The notes beneath the pieces were generated by a model, which worked only from the letters and a program-made list of their open reading frames with translations, was not told the origin of the DNA and did no database searches. From Escherichia phage V18, in sequence record NC_041937.1: a DNA stretch of 64,000 bases; one strand, 5' to 3'. Every line of letters begins with the position of its first letter. The stretch's first letter is position 1. This document shows, one piece after another, positions 18,388-34,344 of the stretch. The position numbers and the translations under genes were made by a program.

Positions 18388-19212
18388 TTATTCACCACCT
18401 TTCAGAGTTGCTTTAACAACCAGCTCTGGACGGGTGTTAACTGCCAGCATGGAAGTTTCAGATTCAATCTTCTCTTCACGCAGGTATGCAGAGTGTTTAT
18501 ACCACATGTACAGTTCCTGTGCTGGAGTGTTTGCTTCGTTAACATCGTCTGCCGGAGCAAAGTGCAGCTGGAACATCTGATCAATACCCATCGGCAGAAT
18601 GCGAGCTTCTTTCTTAGGAATATTGCCAGAGATATCTTCGATAAAGGTGATACCTTTATGCTCAAACACACGGTATACGCTGTCTTGACCGCCAGCACCC
18701 AGACGGCGACGCAGAGGTTCCTGAGCAGAGCCGTAATAGGTGTATGCCAGTTCTACCAGAGGGTCATACTGACAGGTTGTGTCACCAGGTGCATAGGATT
18801 TACCCAGAATAGCCTGGAACAGCGCTTTCTCACGCAGTGCTTCATGAGAAACACGGATACGGCGAACAACGCGGGTTACTACGTCCTGAACAGTTTTCGG
18901 AGCATCAGGTGTGAAGTAACGACGGAAGTTCTGAACATCTGCTGCGGTGATGCCTTTGTCCAGAGGGAAGAACGGGATGTTCAGGTTTTTAACCTGAGCA
19001 CGTTCACTACCAACGTAGTTACGCTCACCACCACGACGGCGTGCCGGAATGTCGGTTACAACTTCATCAACACGCTCAATCTGAGCAATTGTTGAGGTGC
19101 CGAGACGGGTTTCGAACAGATCCATACCAGTAATCAGGCGGAATTGACGCGGAACAAGGTCCAGAGTAGCACCTAAATCAACAATGCCAAATTCATCTTT
19201 ACGAGTAATCAT
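18388..19212 (-). CDS. putative major capsid protein
   Basis: 274 aa; strongly biased GC-rich codon usage unlike neighbours (high expression); downstream of portal and head ORFs; perfect 10 bp GC hairpin terminator follows. Confidence 0.55.
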   Translation of the reverse strand: MITRKDEFGIVDLGATLDLVPRQFRLITGMDLFETRLGTSTIAQIERVDEVVTDIPARRRGGERNYVGSERAQVKNLNIPFFPLDKGITAADVQNFRRYFTPDAPKTVQDVVTRVVRRIRVSHEALREKALFQAILGKSYAPGDTTCQYDPLVELAYTYYGSAQEPLRRRLGAGGQDSVYRVFEHKGITFIEDISGNIPKKEARILPMGIDQMFQLHFAPADDVNEANTPAQELYMWYKHSAYLREEKIESETSMLAVNTRPELVVKATLKGGE

Positions 19213-19296
19213 TTATTTCTCCAAAGTAAAATTGTAGCCAGCATCGCTAGAATCAACTTTGCCGAGCACGATATCAGAATATTGAGCGGTAATCAT
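19213..19296 (-). CDS. small upstream ORF (27 aa) preceding capsid gene
   Basis: MITAQYSDIVLGKVDSSDAGYNFTLEK; shares GAAATAAATGATTAC initiation region with the capsid gene; may be leader peptide or non-functional. Confidence 0.25.
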   Translation of the reverse strand: MITAQYSDIVLGKVDSSDAGYNFTLEK

Positions 19297-19380
19297 TTAT
19301 TTCCCCCGTTAAACTCTTATGCTTCAGCAGATCCAGATACTCTTTAGTTTTGGTTGCGTCCCTTGATCAGGTTCCCTTCT

Positions 19381-19728
19381 TTATCGAAGAGATCCCAGCC
19401 TACCAATACAAGACTCTGCGTCAGCTTGCGCCCATTCCCAATCAGGATGCTCTTTAGCCCAAGCCTCCTCTTCAATCTCAAAACCAAGCATGTGTGCAAG
19501 TGCTTTAGCATCATCATACCACATATCGAAGAAACGACGCAAGTATTCTTCAAAACTAAGCTCCACAGTAACTTGGCGAAGTGCCTTAACAATATCGTCT
19601 GTTAACTGCTCAGGCTTAAGATCACTCTTCATCAAAAGAGATACAGGTCTGTTGTTAGCGCTATAGCCTTGCGCCTTATGGCACAGGGCAATCCCCTTCT
19701 CTTTAATAGTAATCGTTTTTTCAGACAT
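19381..19728 (-). CDS. hypothetical head protein
   Basis: 115 aa acidic ORF between portal and capsid genes. Confidence 0.4.
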   Translation of the reverse strand: MSEKTITIKEKGIALCHKAQGYSANNRPVSLLMKSDLKPEQLTDDIVKALRQVTVELSFEEYLRRFFDMWYDDAKALAHMLGFEIEEEAWAKEHPDWEWAQADAESCIGRLGSLR

Positions 19729-27855: not shown

Positions 27856-28410
27856 TTACTCCCCGCTGTCAATAGCAAGACTCATTGCAATACGGTATGC
27901 CTCTTCTAATGGTAAGAGTCTCCCCCACACATCCCAACCGACATCAAACTGCCTGCCAAACAACTGCTGTGTGGTTCCGTGAGCATGACCGAACAGTTGG
28001 ACCGATCCGTGAGGCTTTCTGTTCCACTTTGCAAACTGGTAATGGCTCATACAGATCAAATTCTTGTTGTGGCGAAGCTCGTAATAATCTACAACCTCAT
28101 GACCGAACTCTTTCATAATTCTGACAGTCGTCCTTGTGTCATGGTTACCACGAACAAGAATAATATGTCCGTTCAACATATTTAGAACATCTGGGAGCAA
28201 TTTGTTAATATTCTTATCATTAGTGCACGCAATATCTCCTAAGTGAAACACAGTGTCTGCAGGTGACACAACAGAGTTCCACTTGGTGATGATCCCCGCA
28301 TTCATACTGTCAAGATTGTGATCATACTGAGATCTGTGTTTTTGACATGAGTCAAACTCCATGACCCGCTGGTGGAGAAAGTGTGTGTCGCTTGTTACAA
28401 AGTATTTCAT
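27856..28410 (-). CDS. calcineurin-like metallophosphoesterase (putative polynucleotide 3'/2',3'-phosphatase)
   Basis: Start at ATG 28410 (MKYFVTSDTHFLHQ) with GAGGA RBS; motifs DTHF, HLGDIA, RGNHD, GHAH. Confidence 0.65.
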   Translation of the reverse strand: MKYFVTSDTHFLHQRVMEFDSCQKHRSQYDHNLDSMNAGIITKWNSVVSPADTVFHLGDIACTNDKNINKLLPDVLNMLNGHIILVRGNHDTRTTVRIMKEFGHEVVDYYELRHNKNLICMSHYQFAKWNRKPHGSVQLFGHAHGTTQQLFGRQFDVGWDVWGRLLPLEEAYRIAMSLAIDSGE

Positions 28411-28417
28411 ACATTCC

Positions 28418-28828
28418 TCATTTAAGTTTAATGCAGTTTTTAAGCTGGCGTTCCATACGATCCACAACCCTGTCTGGAACATCATGAATGCTTTTACTAC
28501 CATGGCGGTTTTCAACCACGATTACGGTATAACTATACCCATGACTGATCGCCATGTCAATATATTCTTGCACATATTTTTCTTTTGTAAATGTATTACT
28601 TACCACGATACGGTCGTATCCCATACGCATCATATCTTCTACGTTATCTTTGCACCATTTTGCTGCAAGTGTTACTTTACTTGCATCCCAGTTGTAATTT
28701 CCATCATCGTCGTACCAGAACATGTCGTTCTCAAAATGTGGATACAGACCTTCTAAAGATAGCGCACTTGCCAGTGTTGATTTGCCAGACCCTGGTAGAC
28801 CACGCACGATATATAGCATTTTAGACAT
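28418..28828 (-). CDS. P-loop polynucleotide kinase-like protein
   Basis: Start at ATG 28828 (MSKMLYIVRGLPGSGKSTLA) with GGAGG RBS; resembles T4 Pnk kinase domain; stop overlaps phosphatase RBS. Confidence 0.6.
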   Translation of the reverse strand: MSKMLYIVRGLPGSGKSTLASALSLEGLYPHFENDMFWYDDDGNYNWDASKVTLAAKWCKDNVEDMMRMGYDRIVVSNTFTKEKYVQEYIDMAISHGYSYTVIVVENRHGSKSIHDVPDRVVDRMERQLKNCIKLK

Positions 28829-28928: not shown

Positions 28929-29606
28929 ATGACAAATGAGGAACGTATGATGAAGTATTTTAATGCAGACGACCTAGTTGACAAAGGTCTTGTAACCAGC
29001 AGATATTACACAGATCTTGGGTTAAAGATCTATAAATATGCCAGAAAAGTATTTTACAACAATTTATGGCATTTGTCCCCTCGTTTACTGGAGTGCCGAG
29101 GCATTGTTGTCGGTAATGAAGGAAATGTTGTGGCATGGCCCTTCACAAAAGTGTTTAACTTGGGAGAAAACTCCACCAACCTGTCTGACAATAAGCTTGT
29201 GACGGCGGTAGAGAAAAAGAACGGATTCCTTGGTGTGGTATCATCTCATAAAGGTGAACTATTGTTCTCAACAACCGGATCTCTTGATTCTCCATATTGT
29301 AACCTCGCAAAGGAAACCATCCAGGAGCAATGTGGTAATTTAGATCTTATCAAGAAGGTTATGGGCAATGAAAACATGACATTCATGTTTGAAATTTGTC
29401 ACCCTTCAGATCCGCATATTGTTCAGGAAGATCATGGCGCATATTTGATAGGTTGCAGGTATAATGATTCTGGAATAATGCTACCAGAGGCAGCTTTAGA
29501 TGGGATTGCCAAATACCTTGGTGCAAAACGTCCTCACACTGTGCGTGAAATTCCGTTCAGCTATGCAAAAGAATTGGCTGCAGAAACAAGAGGTGAAGGT
29601 ATATGA
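28929..29606 (+). CDS. putative RNA/DNA ligase-like nucleotidyltransferase
   Basis: 225 aa; candidate motif I lysine in VEKKNGFLGV (KxNG); divergent from kinase/phosphatase operon; assignment tentative. Confidence 0.45.
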   Translation: MTNEERMMKYFNADDLVDKGLVTSRYYTDLGLKIYKYARKVFYNNLWHLSPRLLECRGIVVGNEGNVVAWPFTKVFNLGENSTNLSDNKLVTAVEKKNGFLGVVSSHKGELLFSTTGSLDSPYCNLAKETIQEQCGNLDLIKKVMGNENMTFMFEICHPSDPHIVQEDHGAYLIGCRYNDSGIMLPEAALDGIAKYLGAKRPHTVREIPFSYAKELAAETRGEGI

Positions 29607-29863
29607 TTCGTAAGCCTTACTATCCTTATGATCTGCAGCTGAAGATTAAGTCTCCATACTATCTGGCACGGAAGGCCGTAATGAGGGGTAAAGCTTGGAA
29701 GATTTGGGATGATGATATCTTTAAACGTGTTGACGAAGAGTTTTACGGCATGGTAAACTTCATTCGTAGCAATTACACAGAAGATGTGTGGAACTGCCTC
29801 CTGGAGCAGGAACGCCGTGAGATACTTGACTGCTATTTCCACAACGAGGACTATATGCAATGA
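29603..29863 (+). CDS. hypothetical protein
   Basis: 86 aa ORF translationally coupled to ligase-like gene. Confidence 0.4.
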   Translation: MIRKPYYPYDLQLKIKSPYYLARKAVMRGKAWKIWDDDIFKRVDEEFYGMVNFIRSNYTEDVWNCLLEQERREILDCYFHNEDYMQ

Positions 29864-30042
29864 AGAAGTGGAAAGTTCTTTTTAATCACTCCAGAGAAAC
29901 GTCAAATTATGGGCTCCCAGACGCTATTTGGCTAAAGAATTCCTCCGAGTTTATGGATTTTATTAACGATAATAGAAAGCTCTACAGACGCGTTTCTGAG
30001 TGGCATATGGACAACGACCTTGGAGAGGTGTTCGAAGGGTAA
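29860..30042 (+). CDS. hypothetical small protein
   Basis: 60 aa ORF, start overlaps upstream stop. Confidence 0.25.
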   Translation: MKKWKVLFNHSRETSNYGLPDAIWLKNSSEFMDFINDNRKLYRRVSEWHMDNDLGEVFEG

Positions 30043-30211
30043 GACTGTTTTATTGCGCTTGGAAGAGCTATTTGTATTTGGTAAGCCTCCTGTAGTTGAC
30101 AACGTGAAGATTTTCGTGCATACTTCTAACCCATCAGCGGCTCGTAAATTCATGCTTGCGGCTGACTCGTTTAAAAAGTTTGGAATAGAGATTAAACAAA
30201 ACATCTACTGA
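30020..30211 (+). CDS. hypothetical small protein
   Basis: 63 aa ORF overlapping previous in another frame; may be a frame variant of the same gene. Confidence 0.25.
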   Translation: MERCSKGKTVLLRLEELFVFGKPPVVDNVKIFVHTSNPSAARKFMLAADSFKKFGIEIKQNIY

Positions 30212-30219
30212 GGACACTT

Positions 30220-30921
30220 ATGCGACGACTGATTGTTATCTCCGGTGCTGGTTTGAGTGCTGAATCTGGTATTCCCACTTTCCGATCTGGTAGCACTGCA
30301 ATGTGGGAGAATTTCAGCATCGATGAGGTGTGCAACATCCACACCTTTGCCAAGAACTACTATAAGGTGCATGACTTTTACAATGCACGTCGTGTAGCTT
30401 TAGGCAGTGTTGAGCCTAACCTTGCACATCTTCGGATCGCTGAGTGGTATTCCCGCTGGTCTGGTCGTGTGATCAACCTTACCACCAATGTAGATGATTT
30501 GCTGGAGCGTGCTGGTGTAAAACATGAAGATATTTTACATGTCCACGGGTATTTGCCAGAAATAGTCTATGAGGACGATGAAGGAAGTGACGTCATTAAG
30601 GACATTGGATACTCTGAGGTAGACGCAGGAAAGTATACCTGGGTTAAGCCTAATGTGGTGTTCTTCGGAGAAGTAGCTCCGAAGTATACAGACATGTATG
30701 ACCTGTTGACTTCTCTTACGAGCAATGATATGGTTATCCTTGTAGGGTGCTCCAACACAGTTATCAATTTTAACTGGGAGCATCTAGAGGAGAATGGCAT
30801 TTCACGTAGTGATATTTACCAGTATGAGGATCGCGGCATCCCAGTTTGGTTTAACGGTGCGGTTGATGCCTTCTCTGATAAAACATTCATTGAGACTGTA
30901 GAAAACTTTATGGAACTTTAA
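30220..30921 (+). CDS. Sir2-family (sirtuin-like) NAD-dependent protein
   Basis: GAGLSAESGIPTFRS Rossmann motif, NVDDL and HVHG motifs; no CxxC zinc-binding module; GAGGA RBS. Confidence 0.7.
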   Translation: MRRLIVISGAGLSAESGIPTFRSGSTAMWENFSIDEVCNIHTFAKNYYKVHDFYNARRVALGSVEPNLAHLRIAEWYSRWSGRVINLTTNVDDLLERAGVKHEDILHVHGYLPEIVYEDDEGSDVIKDIGYSEVDAGKYTWVKPNVVFFGEVAPKYTDMYDLLTSLTSNDMVILVGCSNTVINFNWEHLEENGISRSDIYQYEDRGIPVWFNGAVDAFSDKTFIETVENFMEL

Positions 30922-30934
30922 AAGGAGAACTTTA

Positions 30935-31648
30935 ATGCTGAATACTAAATTAATTGACAACCTGGAAAAACTATCCCAACCTGAAAACTACCTTTGGTCT
31001 GCCAACTGGGTGGAAAACTGGAACCGTGTGGCAGCTAAAGTGAAAAAATCATACACACCATTCGAATTACAGCTTAGCTTCATTGAGGAAGAGTTCAATG
31101 AAGTTTTGGAAGAGCTGGAGAAAGGTGATGGTGGAGATCACCTGCTAAAAGAGGCCTGCGATCTTCACGTTGTCACAAGTTATGCCGCTTATCTTGTTAA
31201 TGACAATCACGAAAAGTGGTCAAGCCTGTTTGATAATCCACAGGGTCTTAAGTTCAAGATCGGTGAGTTCTATGATACCCTGATCGCTGCGAAAAACACA
31301 CCTAAGCAAAGAGCGTCAGCTTACCGCTTAGCGGAGTTGTCAACAGCTTTGCTGTTCCAGCTTCGCGGCGATGTGTGCGGGATGATGCGTAAGGTTCTCA
31401 AATCGAATGACAGTAAGTTTGCACGGGTCAACCATCTACGGTATTCACACGGTGCCAGTGCAGATATGCCTGCTGAACAACTCATCGAGTTGGAGATTAA
31501 AGATCTTGAGCGACGCTTTGATGGTAGATATGAAGGTTTTGTTGCTAAGGAAGAGTTCTACAACGGTAATAAAGTTATCATATTCCTTGACAGTAAAGGT
31601 AAGATCATGAAGCCTTCGAGCTTCAAGGATGTAACAGAGTATATTTAA
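30935..31648 (+). CDS. putative MazG-like nucleotide pyrophosphohydrolase domain protein
   Basis: FIEEEFNEVLEELEKGD ... HLLKEACDL resembles the EExxE/D metal-binding helices of MazG-type NTP-PPases; tentative. Confidence 0.4.
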   Translation: MLNTKLIDNLEKLSQPENYLWSANWVENWNRVAAKVKKSYTPFELQLSFIEEEFNEVLEELEKGDGGDHLLKEACDLHVVTSYAAYLVNDNHEKWSSLFDNPQGLKFKIGEFYDTLIAAKNTPKQRASAYRLAELSTALLFQLRGDVCGMMRKVLKSNDSKFARVNHLRYSHGASADMPAEQLIELEIKDLERRFDGRYEGFVAKEEFYNGNKVIIFLDSKGKIMKPSSFKDVTEYI

Positions 31649-31654
31649 CAACAT

Positions 31655-31680
31655 AGCCGGGATTACCCGGCTTTACTTGT
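31655..31680 (+). terminator. terminator candidate
   Basis: AGCCGGG-ATTA-CCCGGCT hairpin then T-rich tail. Confidence 0.4.
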
Positions 31681-32020: not shown

Positions 32021-32276
32021 TCTTGCTAAACCTGTAGAAGCACACCAGTTTGACGGAAGCTCTTCATCAGTATCTGATCTGCAACGGTGGATTGATACAG
32101 GTGTGTTTACATCGTCACCTGTTCGTACCAGAGATCTTCGTCGCATGTGTGAGCTTGTCGAGCCGTTTGGTAACCTGGTCTTGTACCAGGGAGATTGGTT
32201 AGTTGACTTTATGGGAGACTGGTTGGTAATGAGTAAAGAAGAGATGTTTAACATTTTTAAGGAAGAGGCCGAGTAA
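32007..32276 (+). CDS. hypothetical protein
   Basis: 89 aa ORF coupled to ligase gene (stop overlaps ATG). Confidence 0.4.
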   Translation: MPLFNLAKPVEAHQFDGSSSSVSDLQRWIDTGVFTSSPVRTRDLRRMCELVEPFGNLVLYQGDWLVDFMGDWLVMSKEEMFNIFKEEAE

Positions 32277-33598
32277 TGCATCAGATCAAAACAACACTGT
32301 ACGCACTGAACAAAGATGGCAGCTACCAACAGTGGAAAGTATTCACGGATGGTGATAAGGTTATCGTAGAGTTTGGCAAGCTTGATGGTAAATTGCAATA
32401 CAAAGAGACGATCTGCACACCTAAGAACGTTGGTCGCGCCAATGAAACTACAGCTGAGCAACAGGCCGAGCTGGAAGCGATCAGTAAGTGGGAAAAACAG
32501 GTCCGACTCGGGTACGTGGAGAGTATGGAAGATTGTGAGCAAGGTGTTGATCTTTTACCAATGTTAGTGCATGACTACCTGAAGCGTGGCAAGGCACTTA
32601 AATTACCTTGCTGGATCTTGCGTAAGTTAGATGGCCTTCGTCTACTTGTTGTTTTCCAGAATGGTGAGCCTAAATTTATTTCCCGTGGTAATAAATCCTA
32701 CCCTATTCAAGGAAAGCTTTTGGAGCAACTTCGCTCTTTCCACCTAACCACCGGGATTAAACAGCTCGACGGAGAGCTCTATATTCATGGTCTGCCTCTG
32801 CAGAAAATAGTGTCTCTTGCTAAACGGTGGCGCACACAGGAAGAAATTCAGGCCGAGATCGATAAAGACTACGAGGCAGATAAAAAACGCCGTCAGGCTG
32901 CGATTAAGGCAGGTTTAGCAACATACAAAAACTTCAACAAGATGGATATTCCTGTTGATGTTGATCCTGTTCGTGATGATTTGCGTTACGGAGGGTACTG
33001 CAGCTACGACCTAGAGTATCATATTTTCGATATCCCTAGCGATAAGGTGTGGTGGGATCCTGAAACAGAGTCTGGTCGCTGTAAGGATCTTATGGAGGCA
33101 AACGGTGCTATTACTTCTTTGATGCTTGATCATATTAAGGTTGTTGATGCAGAGCTTGCATATACGGTTGATCGGTGCGAAGAGTCTGTTGGTATATTTA
33201 TGTCTGAAGGATATGAAGGTACCATTATGCGTAACTTCTGTGGTAAATATGAGTATGGTCAGCGAACATCTGAAGCATTGAAATGGAAAAAGTTCAACGA
33301 CGCAGAGGTGAAAGTTATTGACGTTGAGAAAGATAAGAATGATGAAGGTGTTCTTATCTGTGTTGACAAGGAAGGTGTTGTTGTTAAAATGAAGATGAAA
33401 GGCACGCACGAGGAGCGTAGCTATGACAGGATGCAGGAAATGATCGGCAAGTTTGTCACCTTCAAATATCAAGCAAGGACAGAAGACAACAACTACCAAT
33501 TCCCGGAGTGGTGGGATGCTGTATGCGTCAGAAAATCCGCAGAATATGCAAAACATGATGATTCGTTGGAAGAGTGGTTTAATCGGAGGTTTAAATGA
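32276..33598 (+). CDS. ATP-dependent DNA ligase
   Basis: 440 aa; motif I KLDGLR, motif IV EGYEGTIMR, motif V KWKKF. Confidence 0.75.
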   Translation: MHQIKTTLYALNKDGSYQQWKVFTDGDKVIVEFGKLDGKLQYKETICTPKNVGRANETTAEQQAELEAISKWEKQVRLGYVESMEDCEQGVDLLPMLVHDYLKRGKALKLPCWILRKLDGLRLLVVFQNGEPKFISRGNKSYPIQGKLLEQLRSFHLTTGIKQLDGELYIHGLPLQKIVSLAKRWRTQEEIQAEIDKDYEADKKRRQAAIKAGLATYKNFNKMDIPVDVDPVRDDLRYGGYCSYDLEYHIFDIPSDKVWWDPETESGRCKDLMEANGAITSLMLDHIKVVDAELAYTVDRCEESVGIFMSEGYEGTIMRNFCGKYEYGQRTSEALKWKKFNDAEVKVIDVEKDKNDEGVLICVDKEGVVVKMKMKGTHEERSYDRMQEMIGKFVTFKYQARTEDNNYQFPEWWDAVCVRKSAEYAKHDDSLEEWFNRRFK

Positions 33599-34074
33599 AG
33601 CTAGATAAAAATGTACAATTGAGAGCATTTTTTTCGATGATTTCACACTCAGAAGGTACTGACAGGTATGGTGGCGAAGATGCTTCGTACCACATCCTTG
33701 TTGGTGGAAAATACATAGAGGATCTCAGCAGGCATCCCGGTATTTATGTCAAATTAAGACCGGGCCTTACCTCTTCAGCATTTGGCAGATACCAAATTCT
33801 GGAGAAATACGCTAAGCATTACATGAAGCAGCTTGGCTTAAGAGATTTTGGTCCGGCAAGTCAAGATGCCATAGCAAAACAGTTGATCCGCGAATGTAAA
33901 GCCCTTGATGACATTTATGAAGGAAGGATCCGTTCAGCTATCTATAAATGCCGTAGCCGTTGGGCAAGTTTCCCACCACCACCGGGGGCTGGTAAACTGT
34001 ATGATCAGCGTGTAGAAAACATAGAGAAGATGCTGGACGTCTTCCGAAAAGCCGGAGGCACAGTACTGGATTAA
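33595..34074 (+). CDS. endolysin (lambda R-like lytic transglycosylase)
   Basis: Aligns by eye with lambda R: SHSEGTD, ILVGG, SSAFGRYQIL, KQLGLRDFGPASQDAIA, WASFPPPPGAG, KAGGTV. Confidence 0.75.
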   Translation: MKLDKNVQLRAFFSMISHSEGTDRYGGEDASYHILVGGKYIEDLSRHPGIYVKLRPGLTSSAFGRYQILEKYAKHYMKQLGLRDFGPASQDAIAKQLIRECKALDDIYEGRIRSAIYKCRSRWASFPPPPGAGKLYDQRVENIEKMLDVFRKAGGTVLD

Positions 34075-34077
34075 TGG

Positions 34078-34106
34078 TTGACATAACCACACGGACGTGG
34101 TATTGT
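34078..34106 (+). promoter_or_regulatory. sigma70-like promoter
   Basis: TTGACA-N17-TATTGT upstream of ORF 34138. Confidence 0.45.
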
Positions 34107-34137
34107 CACCTCATAAGATGTTCAGGAGGGTTTAACC

Positions 34138-34344
34138 ATGAAAGATTTTCTGTTGGCAATTTTGTTCATGGCGGCATGTCTGGCCTGTGGTGTAGTGTTT
34201 GCAGGTGAAACAGCGTATCTTGTCGATGTATATCGGGACAATGGTAAACGTATTTGCCTTTATGAGACAAGCCAAGGTGAGCTCTACGAGCTTGTGAAAC
34301 AAGGCGAGGCAGGTTCCTGCCCTCGCACCCATTTCTTTGAATAA
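34138..34344 (+). CDS. small secreted/membrane protein (signal peptide or lipoprotein-like)
   Basis: 68 aa; N-terminal hydrophobic segment LLAILFMAACLACGVV; preceded by sigma70-like promoter; could be lysis-associated. Confidence 0.4.
   Translation: MKDFLLAILFMAACLACGVVFAGETAYLVDVYRDNGKRICLYETSQGELYELVKQGEAGSCPRTHFFE

Follow-up and report, generated by a model that had tools for sequence, protein, structure and literature searches.

The closest described relatives of the gene studied here are found in rV5 and its kin. The rV5 neighbourhood, in which a sirtuin stands among genes for an RNA ligase, cREC, MazG, a kinase and a phosphoesterase, was published by Iyer et al. (2022, PMC9503650), who predicted for the sirtuin of the rV5 cluster a role like that of KptA/Tpt1 in NAD-dependent RNA repair. 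Phage sirtuins had been reported before that in the Vibrio phages phiSt2, phiGrn1 and KVP40, whose Sir2/CobB proteins likewise have no zinc-ligand site in the small domain and conserve the catalytic His (Skliros et al., 2016, PMC5107563). The same authors named T5, SPC35, My1 and others as carriers of homologues, and proposed that the Vibrio phage enzymes deacetylate proteins and so activate acetyl-CoA synthetase (PMC5107563). Our literature search found no biochemical or genetic test of any phage sirtuin. The Vibrio phage sirtuins are distant from the gene described here (69% DNA identity over the ~30% of the gene that can be matched) and have a different genomic context; records of large Vibrio phages (~253 kb) are among the DNA matches listed.

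In this study, we have analysed the sirtuin gene of Escherichia phage V18 within a stretch of 64,000 nt (the window), which is that of an rV5-like Vequintavirus. As in rV5 and other Vequintavirus, the sirtuin has Rnl1, cREC, kinase, MazG and calcineurin-like phosphoesterase genes as neighbours, a zinc-less ribbon and a TNVDD motif, and the same gene occupies the same place in V5 (rV5) and other Vequintavirus at 91-99.7% DNA identity. The window copy differs from the rV5 sirtuin in that 60 nt (20 amino acids) are missing and in that the neighbouring ligase and cREC genes carry frameshifts or are scrambled; the deletion aside, its product shares 97-99% identity with the 253-aa proteins from phages nom and APCEc02. 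The gene itself is already known, a routine annotated component of rV5-like phages: the same gene carries a Sir2 label in more than 100 close relatives and in ~700 phage records overall. A search of 50,697 phage records gave ~700 with a sirtuin of this clade, the carriers being T5-like, rV5-like, phi92-like and jumbo phages; the window gene is an rV5-type member of this large zinc-less clade, which derives from class III (CobB/SIRT5-like) enzymes. Its features are as follows.

30220 to 30921, plus strand: Sir2-family ORF of 233 aa in the form of the zinc-less phage clade (PHROG 2162), with an internal 20-aa deletion (Pfam, PHROG, alignments)
30244 to 30288, plus strand: NAD-binding loop GAGLSAESGIPTFRS, residues 9-23, aligned to CobB GAGISAESGIRTFR
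30376 to 30393, plus strand: FYNARR, residues 53-58, the class III sirtuin Y-x-x-R motif, aligned to CobB FYNARR and SIRT5 FYHYRR
30481 to 30498, plus strand: TTNVDD, residues 88-93, counterpart of the sirtuin QNID motif, aligned to CobB TQNIDN
30538 to 30549, plus strand: HVHG, residues 107-110, with the catalytic His at His109, aligned to CobB HMHG
30550 to 30645, plus strand: small-domain ribbon free of cysteines, residues 111-142, the zinc-binding segment of other sirtuins (alignments, model)
30646 to 30672, plus strand: KPNVVFFGE, residues 143-151, the sirtuin FGE substrate-cleft motif, aligned to CobB RPHVVWFGE
30776 to 30784, plus strand: junction of the 60-nt in-frame deletion specific to the window, with AGC microhomology (DNA and protein alignments to nom and APCEc02)

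The ORF listing gives a genuine reading frame of 233 codons from ATG to TAA, and its identification as a phage-encoded sirtuin-like protein, first made in the first-pass annotation, is borne out by the profile searches. Pfam SIR2 (PF02146) matches it with 96.5 bits (gathering score 24; E = 2.3e-27) over profile positions 1-178 of 180, and the PHROG 2162 profile covers residues 1-232 (E = 4.5e-96). CobB and SIRT5 are both matched at E ~ 2e-21, E. coli CobB being the best solved sequence match (E = 1.7e-21). The AlphaFold model of the full-length 253-aa form (pLDDT 90.3) finds its best solved counterparts in CobB, Sir2Af1 and SIRT5 (E ~ 1e-17, TM 0.75/0.84).

The same first reading had recognised a Sir2 NAD-binding signature followed by NVDDL and then HVHG, and all three are present in that order, with TTNVDDL at residues 88-94 of the 233-aa ORF. 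Within the NAD-binding loop the family shows no variation at G9, A10, G11, S16, G17, F21 and R22; the GAGxS loop (G9-A10-G11-x-S13), N90, D92 and H109 align with CobB and do not vary in the family either. The catalytic His context, on whose integrity the identification had been made to depend, is thus preserved: in the alignment with E. coli CobB, His109 takes the position of the catalytic His, and H109 and G110 are invariant in 143 out of 143 representatives. Invariance extends to F53, Y54, R57 and R58 of FYNARR across the close family (Y54 and R57 being identical in CobB), and to K143, P144, F148, F149 and E151 of the FGE motif. The counterpart of QNID keeps Asn90 and Asp92 and has Thr89 in place of Gln; T89, N90 and D92 are all invariant across the close family.

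A lack of the zinc-binding module had also been claimed for this protein, and here a distinction is needed. The 233-aa protein has two cysteines only (C38 and C177) and no CxxC, hence no Cys4 zinc site, so that part of the claim stands; the ribbon segment, however, is present, and only its Cys ligands are gone. The 38 residues between HG and FFGE hold no Cys, the ribbon polypeptide itself is retained, and the region contains three beta strands in the AlphaFold model (110-118, 124-128 and 142-146). Among close homologues the ribbon has no or one Cys in 118 of 119 and two in the remaining one, whereas zinc-bearing relatives have, besides a DIGYS motif in common with the phage ribbon, the CxxC...CxxC pattern. 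The zinc cysteines have been lost and the ribbon kept throughout the clade; this is not peculiar to the window gene, and the absence of zinc ligands from the small domain of phage sirtuins was already reported in 2016 (PMC5107563). The replacement of Gln by Thr in QNxD tracks with zinc loss: scored over 143 cluster representatives, the combinations were Gln with zinc site in 78, Thr without zinc site in 36, Gln without in 9 and Thr with in 8 (Fisher p = 3e-16).

These features bear directly on whether the protein is an ordinary NAD+-dependent lysine deacylase like CobB (a deacetylase, desuccinylase or similar) that resets the acylation of host or phage proteins during infection. This is how PMC5107563 and nearly all GenBank annotations read such genes, and it accords with CobB, Sir2Af1 and SIRT5 being the nearest characterised relatives in both sequence and fold, as well as with the conservation of three catalytic residues (Asn, Asp and His), of the FGE motif at the cleft and of the Y-x-x-R pair of class III. 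Yet the zinc ligands beside the peptide cleft are lost, the Gln-to-Thr change in the NAD motif is invariant, and the phage protein has V-I-N where the acyl-lysine tunnel of CobB has its V-Y-P loop (by alignment; CobB residue identities from PMC5107563). The NCBIfam deacylase models also fall far under their cut-offs: the best match, subfamily model NF001753, reaches 113 bits where 243 are required, and NF040867, the highest-scoring CobB equivalog, 97.9 bits where 320 are. Together with the gene linkage described below, this leaves protein deacylation as a possible but doubtful function. [quoted passage not shown]

The one feature particular to the window copy, the 20-residue loss, was overlooked in the first-pass annotation. 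Its junction lies at window position 30778/30779 and removes residues 188-207 of the 253-aa form, that is LFPACNKGTKLLIVNKYDSQ. The window allele measures 702 nt, while all relatives among the matches listed carry a 762-nt gene and the close protein clusters are all of 253 aa. Lost with the segment are L188, P190, G195 and K197, each at least 91% conserved, and N202, which is 100% invariant. In the full-length model, the deleted stretch makes up half of the helix 184-193 and the whole of the core Rossmann strand 197-201; a complete Rossmann sheet with a C-terminal strand followed by the conserved Asn is present in all relatives and absent in the window copy only. When the 233-aa form is modelled with AlphaFold, helix and strand are lost, with a local pLDDT of ~52-61, and the remainder of the fold is still predicted.

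Neither the exact 233-aa protein nor the deletion junction was found in public collections of viral, metagenome and genome contigs. A degenerate search for the junction pattern gave two chance matches, neither of them with a sirtuin. As the protein look-up and the junction searches came back empty, we rejected the deletion as a natural variant. A comparison of the V18 window with phage nom showed that about 17 of 60 compared genes are frameshifted or interrupted, mostly through homopolymer under-calls. These homopolymer frameshifts hit the tape measure gene, the large terminase gene and others, and five deletions fall across the capsid genes. We also considered a decay specific to this module, with a ligase frameshift, a broken cREC and the sirtuin deletion side by side, and rejected it, the damage being spread over the whole window, essential genes included. 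Because the same window holds homopolymer frameshifts and deletions in essential genes, the 60-nt deletion probably reflects faulty assembly or a defective (dead) allele and not a new form of the enzyme, and the 233-aa sequence probably does not represent the native protein.

Could the deletion nevertheless be a genuine allele of a viable phage, encoding a functional shortened sirtuin? It is in frame and bears AGC microhomology at its edges, as replication slippage would leave, and AlphaFold keeps the rest of the 233-aa fold at a mean pLDDT of 87.9. What is removed, however, comprises the invariant Asn202, four highly conserved residues and a core beta strand, the deletion recurs in no other sequence of any collection, and the comparable lesions of capsid, terminase and tape measure genes in the window would be impossible for a viable phage, so we hold this reading to be very improbable. 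An in-frame deletion with 3-nt microhomology fits a real deletion as well, and artefact status is not provable from sequence alone.

The genes around the sirtuin are the following.

27856 to 28410, minus strand: calcineurin-like metallophosphoesterase gene (Pfam Metallophos and Metallophos_2; PHROG 547)
28418 to 28828, minus strand: P-loop (AAA_33) polynucleotide-kinase-like gene, divergent from the ligase (Pfam AAA_33, E = 2.5e-10; PHROG 2071 and PHROG 505, polynucleotide kinase)
28950 to 29863, plus strand: T4 Rnl1-type RNA ligase gene (Pfam RNA_lig_T4_1, E = 5e-14; PHROG 562)
29860 to 30211, plus strand: cREC (cyclic-phosphate processing receiver) gene, disrupted (intact nom homologue: Pfam cREC_REC PF20274, E = 5e-15)
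30935 to 31648, plus strand: MazG-like nucleotide pyrophosphohydrolase gene (PHROG 671, E = 5e-22; RefSeq product name)
31655 to 31672, plus strand: GC-rich hairpin followed by a T-rich tail (consensus scan: 7-bp stem, 6 GC pairs)
32276 to 33598, plus strand: ATP-dependent DNA ligase gene (PHROG 114, E = 4e-80)

The Rnl1-cREC-sirtuin-MazG run is tightly packed, its junctions being a 4-nt overlap and gaps of 8 nt and 13 nt, the last of which separates the sirtuin from the MazG-like gene downstream. The hairpin at 31655-31672 is likely the terminator of this unit; it is a pattern match only, and the record of phage Gotham annotates a terminator in the same stretch. In Gotham the kinase-like gene is labelled as a 3'-phosphatase, 5'-polynucleotide kinase. 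RNA ligase, cREC, kinase, MazG and calcineurin-like phosphoesterase genes all lie at most 2.4 kb from the sirtuin. The DNA ligase gene is a neighbour that stays linked to the cassette, at most a candidate member of the system. In the window, the Rnl1 gene is split by a 1-nt deletion at 29598 (GGG to GG) that shifts the frame with respect to nom and APCEc02, and in cREC the acidic pair of WLDDLRD reads LFNHSRE, with a TAA stop at 30040 and a +1 frameshift. The second Sir2-like gene annotated downstream in nom was rejected as such: the gene is MazG-like, and the product names of APCEc02 are shifted by one gene, an error that has been propagated.

Outside the window, the linkage of the sirtuin to RNA-repair genes was reproduced in three phage lineages, which correspond to the three configurations of PMC9503650, rV5 being 'configuration 2'. 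In phages of the rV5, PVP-SE1, 4MG and Mydo type, 13 loci have retained Rnl1, cREC, kinase, Metallophos, MazG and DNA ligase, even though the proteins are no more than 27-61% identical. Counted by partner, the MazG-like gene is co-conserved with the sirtuin in 13 loci, the Metallophos gene in 14 and the DNA ligase, at up to 8 kb, in 13. The T5-like phages contribute 28 loci with a HAD 'Swiss-army-knife' RNA-repair phosphatase just downstream of the sirtuin, and the jumbo phages two loci with a 2H phosphoesterase, Nudix and PIN-PhoH beside it. The neighbourhoods in phi92-like phages hold only DUF7275, DUF7277 and unannotated proteins, and are uninformative. Of 80 viral loci searched by tblastn, 39 gave no match to any cassette protein. 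The persistence of sirtuin linkage to genes of RNA-end processing in three unrelated phage lineages is a further argument against an ordinary protein deacylase.

Some of these partners would also suit a quite different role, in counter-defence or host takeover. The enzyme would then attach ADP-ribose to proteins of the host or of a defence system, or it would use up or alter NAD+ or immune signals made from NAD. In jumbo phages the sirtuin adjoins a Nudix gene and a 2H phosphoesterase, the latter with a match to the anti-CBASS Acb1 family (E = 1.6e-16); MazG, cREC, HAD and metallophosphoesterase are nucleotide or phosphoester hydrolases that could target signalling nucleotides; and ADP-ribosyltransferase activity is possible for sirtuins (PMC9503650). 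The first-pass annotation had drawn a parallel with the Sir2 domains of NAD-depleting antiphage defence. No such relationship could be detected: PADLOC matched the full-length form to no defence model and its sole output for the window copy was a match of 14 bits to PDC-S65 at residues 65-98, below the threshold and with no stretch passing, and we therefore rejected a kinship with defence-type SIR2, the nearest kin being the class III deacylases CobB, Sir2Af1 and SIRT5. A Macro-domain gene of the SirTM type was sought with Pfam and PHROG among the genes flanking the sirtuin, and none was found; Iyer et al. likewise note no Macro-domain partner for the zinc-less phage sirtuin clade (PMC9503650). 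Moreover, a free NADase would drain NAD+, a cofactor which phages in other cases act to replenish (PMC13464706), the literature search found no anti-defence link for this clade, and two of the partners, the RNA ligase and the polynucleotide-kinase-like protein, belong specifically to RNA repair. We consider a counter-defence enzyme unlikely. The earlier proposals of ADP-ribosylation of host or defence proteins, or of interference with NAD-based immunity, found no support here, and the gene context, an RNA-repair cassette, points to RNA repair instead.

Based on this context, our preferred reading, which we put forward tentatively, is that the native 253-aa enzyme would belong to an RNA-end repair cassette in which NAD+ serves as ADP-ribose donor (as inferred after Iyer et al., 2022), the window copy being an artefact or a dead allele. 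The most likely reaction would be the removal of a 2'-phosphate from a healed or sealed tRNA break, as by KptA/Tpt1; this role on RNA 2'-phosphates is predicted from the gene neighbourhood. An oxygen of the RNA phosphate would attack C1'' of NAD+, with departure of nicotinamide, after which His109 would activate the ribose 2''-OH so that ADP-ribose 1'',2''-cyclic phosphate is released. The latter could then be degraded by the cREC, MazG and phosphoesterase neighbours. For the clade as a whole, we would suggest, with considerable reserve, that the zinc-less TNVDD phage sirtuins might be no protein deacylases but sirtuin-fold enzymes acting on nucleic-acid ends or nucleotides. The leading option for them is the possibility of a Tpt1-like RNA 2'-phosphotransferase that, with Rnl1, cREC and MazG, would undo tRNA cleavage by the host.

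Several observations weigh against this role on RNA. The kinase, metallophosphoesterase and Rnl1 could heal and seal in the way of T4, with no 2'-phosphate left for a Tpt1-like step. The FGE cleft motif and the YxxR of protein deacylases are kept, and the nearest characterised relatives are deacylases. No cassette protein was detected by tblastn in 39 of the 80 viral loci, with the phi92-like neighbourhoods adding no information, and nucleotide immune signals are just as possible a target for the 2H, Nudix, MazG and phosphoesterase partners.

The window gene by itself matters little, its sole unusual feature being most likely a sequence defect; the idea of an RNA-repair sirtuin was already published as a prediction in 2022, and the damaged window copy adds nothing to it. 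The interest lies with the clade. If its members act on RNA 2'-phosphates or other nucleotides, sirtuin chemistry would extend beyond proteins; a Tpt1-like member would be the first sirtuin with a part in RNA repair, and would have arrived at the KptA reaction by convergence. A NAD-dependent branch would thereby be added to phage tRNA repair against host anticodon nucleases, with a bearing on phage host range and on the contest between phages and bacteria over NAD+.

Among known systems, E. coli CobB (PDB 1S5P, 6RXJ-6RXS; 27% identity) shares with the phage protein the GAGxS loop, FYNARR, NxD, HG and FGE, but CobB alone has the zinc cysteines of the ribbon (C...CxCC), the Gln of QNID and the V-Y-P acyl-lysine loop, and it is a cellular protein deacylase unlinked to RNA-repair genes. 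SIRT5 and Archaeoglobus Sir2Af1 have the same fold and the same Y-x-x-R pair, which in SIRT5 recognises acidic acyl groups, and differ in their Cys4 zinc ribbon, longer small domain and protein substrates. The enzyme proposed as a functional counterpart is KptA/Tpt1, which has the ART fold and is found in RNA-repair contexts of both phages and cells; using NAD+, it takes the 2'-phosphate off RNA in the form of ADP-ribose 1'',2''-cyclic phosphate (PMC9503650). Its fold is unrelated and there is no homology; the proposed analogy is one of gene neighbourhood and of similarity in chemical mechanism. Finally, the defence SIR2 NADases (ThsA, DSR1/2, SIR2-HerA, SIR2-APAZ) belong to the same superfamily and bind NAD+. 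These defence-associated enzymes are not known to have a zinc ribbon either. Unlike them, the phage protein is a single domain of 233/253 aa with no sensor or partner (SLOG, HerA, pAgo or a long C-terminal domain), and it is encoded by a lytic phage, inside an operon of nucleic-acid metabolism.

The analysis centred on one gene of the window:

30220-30921, plus strand: sirtuin open reading frame, ATG to TAA, 233 aa, with a GAGGA ribosome-binding sequence upstream

This gene belongs to the sirtuin superfamily and to a zinc-less phage clade. An HMM search of its product against the Sir2 family gave Pfam SIR2 at E=2.3e-27 (96.5 bits against a cut-off of 24, profile positions 1-178 of 180), PHROG 2162, "Sir2 (NAD-dependent deacetylase)", was matched end to end at E=4.5e-96, and the best sequence matches among solved structures were E. 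coli CobB, human SIRT5 and Archaeoglobus Sir2Af1 (E~2e-21). When aligned with CobB, GAGLSAESGIPTFRS falls on the NAD loop, TTNVDD on the QNID motif and HVHG on the catalytic HG, while FYNARR has the same residues as the class III Y-x-x-R motif of CobB and KPNVVFFGE is the counterpart of the FGE cleft motif. Asn90, Asp92 and His109 show no variation throughout the family, among the cluster representatives from a profile search. The first-pass annotation had read a Sir2-like protein from its NAD-binding signature, NVDDL and HVHG, and Pfam, PHROG and the CobB alignment bear this out far beyond chance, the context of the catalytic His included. The AlphaFold model of a full-length relative (mean pLDDT 90.3, pTM 0.88) has CobB (TM 0.75/0.84, 27% identity), Sir2Af1 and SIRT5 as structural neighbours. 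None of the PADLOC defence-system SIR2 profiles was matched; the protein is neither a defence-type SIR2 nor half of a SirTM-macrodomain pair.

The zinc-binding module had also been called absent, and this holds for the ligands: the protein has two cysteines only (C38, kept in most family members, and C177) and no CxxC. The polypeptide of the module, however, is not deleted, as 38 residues separate HG from FFGE, about the CobB count, and the full-length model has three beta strands there (110-118, 124-128 and 142-146). The loss of cysteine ligands is a trait of the clade: among the 119 closest homologues, which reach down to 46% identity, 118 carry 0 or 1 Cys in this ribbon and the remaining one carries 2. 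The profile search, run on 1.84 billion cluster representatives, returned 171 proteins at E<=1e-30. Across 143 representatives of at least 200 aa, Thr-for-Gln at residue 89 of the QNxD motif is strongly coupled to zinc-cysteine loss in ribbon 111-142: Gln goes with a Cys-rich ribbon in 78 and Thr with no zinc site in 36, the mixed classes holding 9 and 8 (Fisher p=3e-16). The ribbon motif DIGYS is common to zinc-bearing relatives and the zinc-less form, so the latter descends from a zinc-binding ancestor through ligand loss.

The sirtuin gene lies in a densely packed rightward run, between the cREC and MazG-like genes, in the order shown here:

28950-29863, rightward: RNA ligase, T4 Rnl1-type (Pfam RNA_lig_T4_1)
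29860-30211, rightward: cyclic-phosphate processing receiver (cREC), of which an intact homologue matches PF20274
30935-31648, rightward: MazG-like pyrophosphohydrolase, 3' of the sirtuin gene
31655-31672: GC-rich hairpin with a perfect 7-bp stem, terminator-like on both strands

The junctions of the run are a 4-nt overlap followed by gaps of 8 and 13 nt. The hairpin comes immediately after the MazG-like gene, and a ligase-cREC-sirtuin-MazG transcription unit probably ends there. Upstream, and divergent from the run, are genes for an AAA_33 polynucleotide-kinase-like protein and a calcineurin-like phosphoesterase. The label "putative Sir2-like protein" on the downstream gene (30935-31648; L001 7995-8708 and L002 3276-3989 in the stretches from relatives) was rejected, this gene being MazG-like; product names in the close relative APCEc02 are off by one gene along this stretch, an error carried over into the relative nom.

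The gene order is exactly "configuration 2" of Iyer et al. (2022), with Escherichia phage V5 as its prototype (Iyer, Burroughs, Anantharaman and Aravind, 2022; PMC9503650), and the same authors proposed that a distinct phage sirtuin clade acts like KptA/Tpt1. The sirtuin would thus use NAD+ to remove 2'-phosphates from RNA in the repair of cleaved tRNAs. By analogy with established mechanisms such chemistry is plausible for the phage protein: sirtuins and Tpt1 both begin with attack on C1'' of NAD+ by an oxygen nucleophile, and a 1'',2''-cyclic product forms when the ribose 2''-OH in turn attacks the adduct. A role in RNA repair is the likeliest of the readings considered, but we hold it only tentatively: kinase, phosphoesterase and Rnl1 ligase can mend a break without leaving any 2'-phosphate, and the deacylase hallmarks are still present. 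A conventional protein deacylase we consider somewhat less likely. Our literature search found no experimental test of a phage sirtuin.

Linkage was assessed in 80 IMG/VR loci. Ligase, cREC, kinase, phosphoesterase, MazG and DNA ligase are kept in 13 of them (rV5, PVP-SE1, 4MG and Mydo type), with cassette proteins only 27-61% identical to those of the window; tblastn found no cassette protein in 39 of the 80. A HAD "Swiss-army-knife" RNA-repair phosphatase (Pfam HAD_SAK_2) lies just 3' of the sirtuin in 28 T5-like loci, and phi92-like contexts are uninformative. In two jumbo-phage loci (L067, 7509-11799; L085, 7965-11391) a Nudt16-like Nudix protein and a PIN-PhoH fusion flank the sirtuin, and in L067 only, there is also a 2H phosphoesterase, with a match to the anti-CBASS Acb1 family (E=1.6e-16). 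The jumbo-phage context would suit RNA repair and the breakdown of nucleotide immune signals alike. The Acb1-like neighbour hints at the anti-defence or host-modifying role raised by the first-pass annotation, which we regard as improbable.

The first-pass annotation overlooked a difference in length: the gene measures 762 nt (253 aa) in all relatives, against 702 nt in the window. Alignment to nom and APCEc02 places a clean 60-nt in-frame deletion at junction 30778/30779, with AGC microhomology at its bounds; the deletion aside, two substitutions separate the gene from that of APCEc02. The lost peptide, LFPACNKGTKLLIVNKYDSQ, holds L188, P190, G195 and K197 (>=91% conserved) and the invariant N202. 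In the full-length model it supplies all of strand 197-201 and one half of helix 184-193. In a model of the 233-aa form these elements are gone and local confidence drops from >90 to ~52-61. In rV5-like sirtuins Asn202 is followed by nine inserted residues, KYDSQQLGE (residues 203-211 of the 253-aa form; window ~30779-30795); this insertion is missing from 87% of the wider family, and its first five residues are taken out by the deletion. The exact 233-aa protein has no record in a 153-billion-gene index, close protein clusters being 253 aa in every case; the junction sequence was found in none of the viral, metagenome and genome contig collections, where a degenerate pattern gave two chance matches only.

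Being in frame and bounded by microhomology, the deletion may be a real allele, but many other defects lie across the same window, capsid, terminase and tape measure genes included:

7971, 10045, 11560, 15502, 17907, 22997, 24224, 25046, 27158, 29598, 34608, 35166, 39684-39690: single-base deletions relative to nom, almost all in short homopolymers
18764-19395: five capsid-region deletions of about 183, 350, 367, 83 and 117 nt relative to all ~104 relatives

Of the 60 annotated nom genes compared, the window carries ~17 in frameshifted or interrupted form; the tape measure gene, that of the large terminase subunit and several structural genes are affected. The frame-disrupting single-base differences are mostly homopolymer under-calls (GGG to GG, CCC to CC), a pattern typical of sequencing or assembly error. 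Genes put out of frame by the single-base deletions include those for tape measure, large terminase, RNA ligase, HNH and Dam methylase. Over the stretch of the major capsid and head decoration genes the window has 1501 nt against about 2605 nt in about 104 relatives; the major capsid gene is lost in part, the head decoration genes for the most part. In the cREC gene two short patches (about 29870-29900 and 30036-30070) are scrambled, and elsewhere the gene is nearly identical to that of phage Gotham; its conserved acidic pair WLDDLRD reads LFNHSRE, a TAC has turned into a TAA stop at 30040, and the frame shifts by +1. In nom, DNA ligase is followed by genes for a lysin and an HNH endonuclease (nom_80, nom_81); these have no counterpart in the window (33560-34138), and the DNA ligase has a 3' end unlike that of nom (440 aa against 427 aa). 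Frameshifts and capsid deletions on this scale are more than a viable phage could carry. The window is therefore either badly assembled or taken from a genome that is itself defective, and the 60 nt missing from the sirtuin gene are best counted among these defects, most likely as an artefact.

The window derives from an rV5-like myovirus (Vequintavirinae, genus Vequintavirus). With the 4 kb surrounding the sirtuin as query, 120 phage records match at 90-98% identity, nearly all annotated ones labelling the gene Sir2-like or NAD-dependent deacetylase. A more sensitive DNA search picked up relatives of the gene in 708 phage records, among which are T5-like, phi92-like, Felix-like and large Vibrio phages. 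Separately, 18 to 25 GenBank "Campylobacter phage" records (host Campylobacter jejuni, some unannotated) are ~95% identical to this E. coli rV5-like genome, an odd host for a Vequintavirus. Phage Sir2/CobB proteins without a zinc ligand site were described in phiSt2, phiGrn1 and KVP40, with T5 and other phages listed as homologue carriers (Skliros et al., 2016; PMC5107563). Earlier publications or annotations already cover the gene, the absence of its zinc site and its setting among RNA-repair genes, and the finding is thus already known; the 20-aa deletion is the sole feature unique to the window. The remaining interest lies in the sirtuin family and its substrate, rather than in this copy. 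Although the protein resembles class III sirtuins, it falls under the curated NCBIfam thresholds for that class; unlike them, it is without the zinc site, and in its NAD motif Thr replaces Gln.
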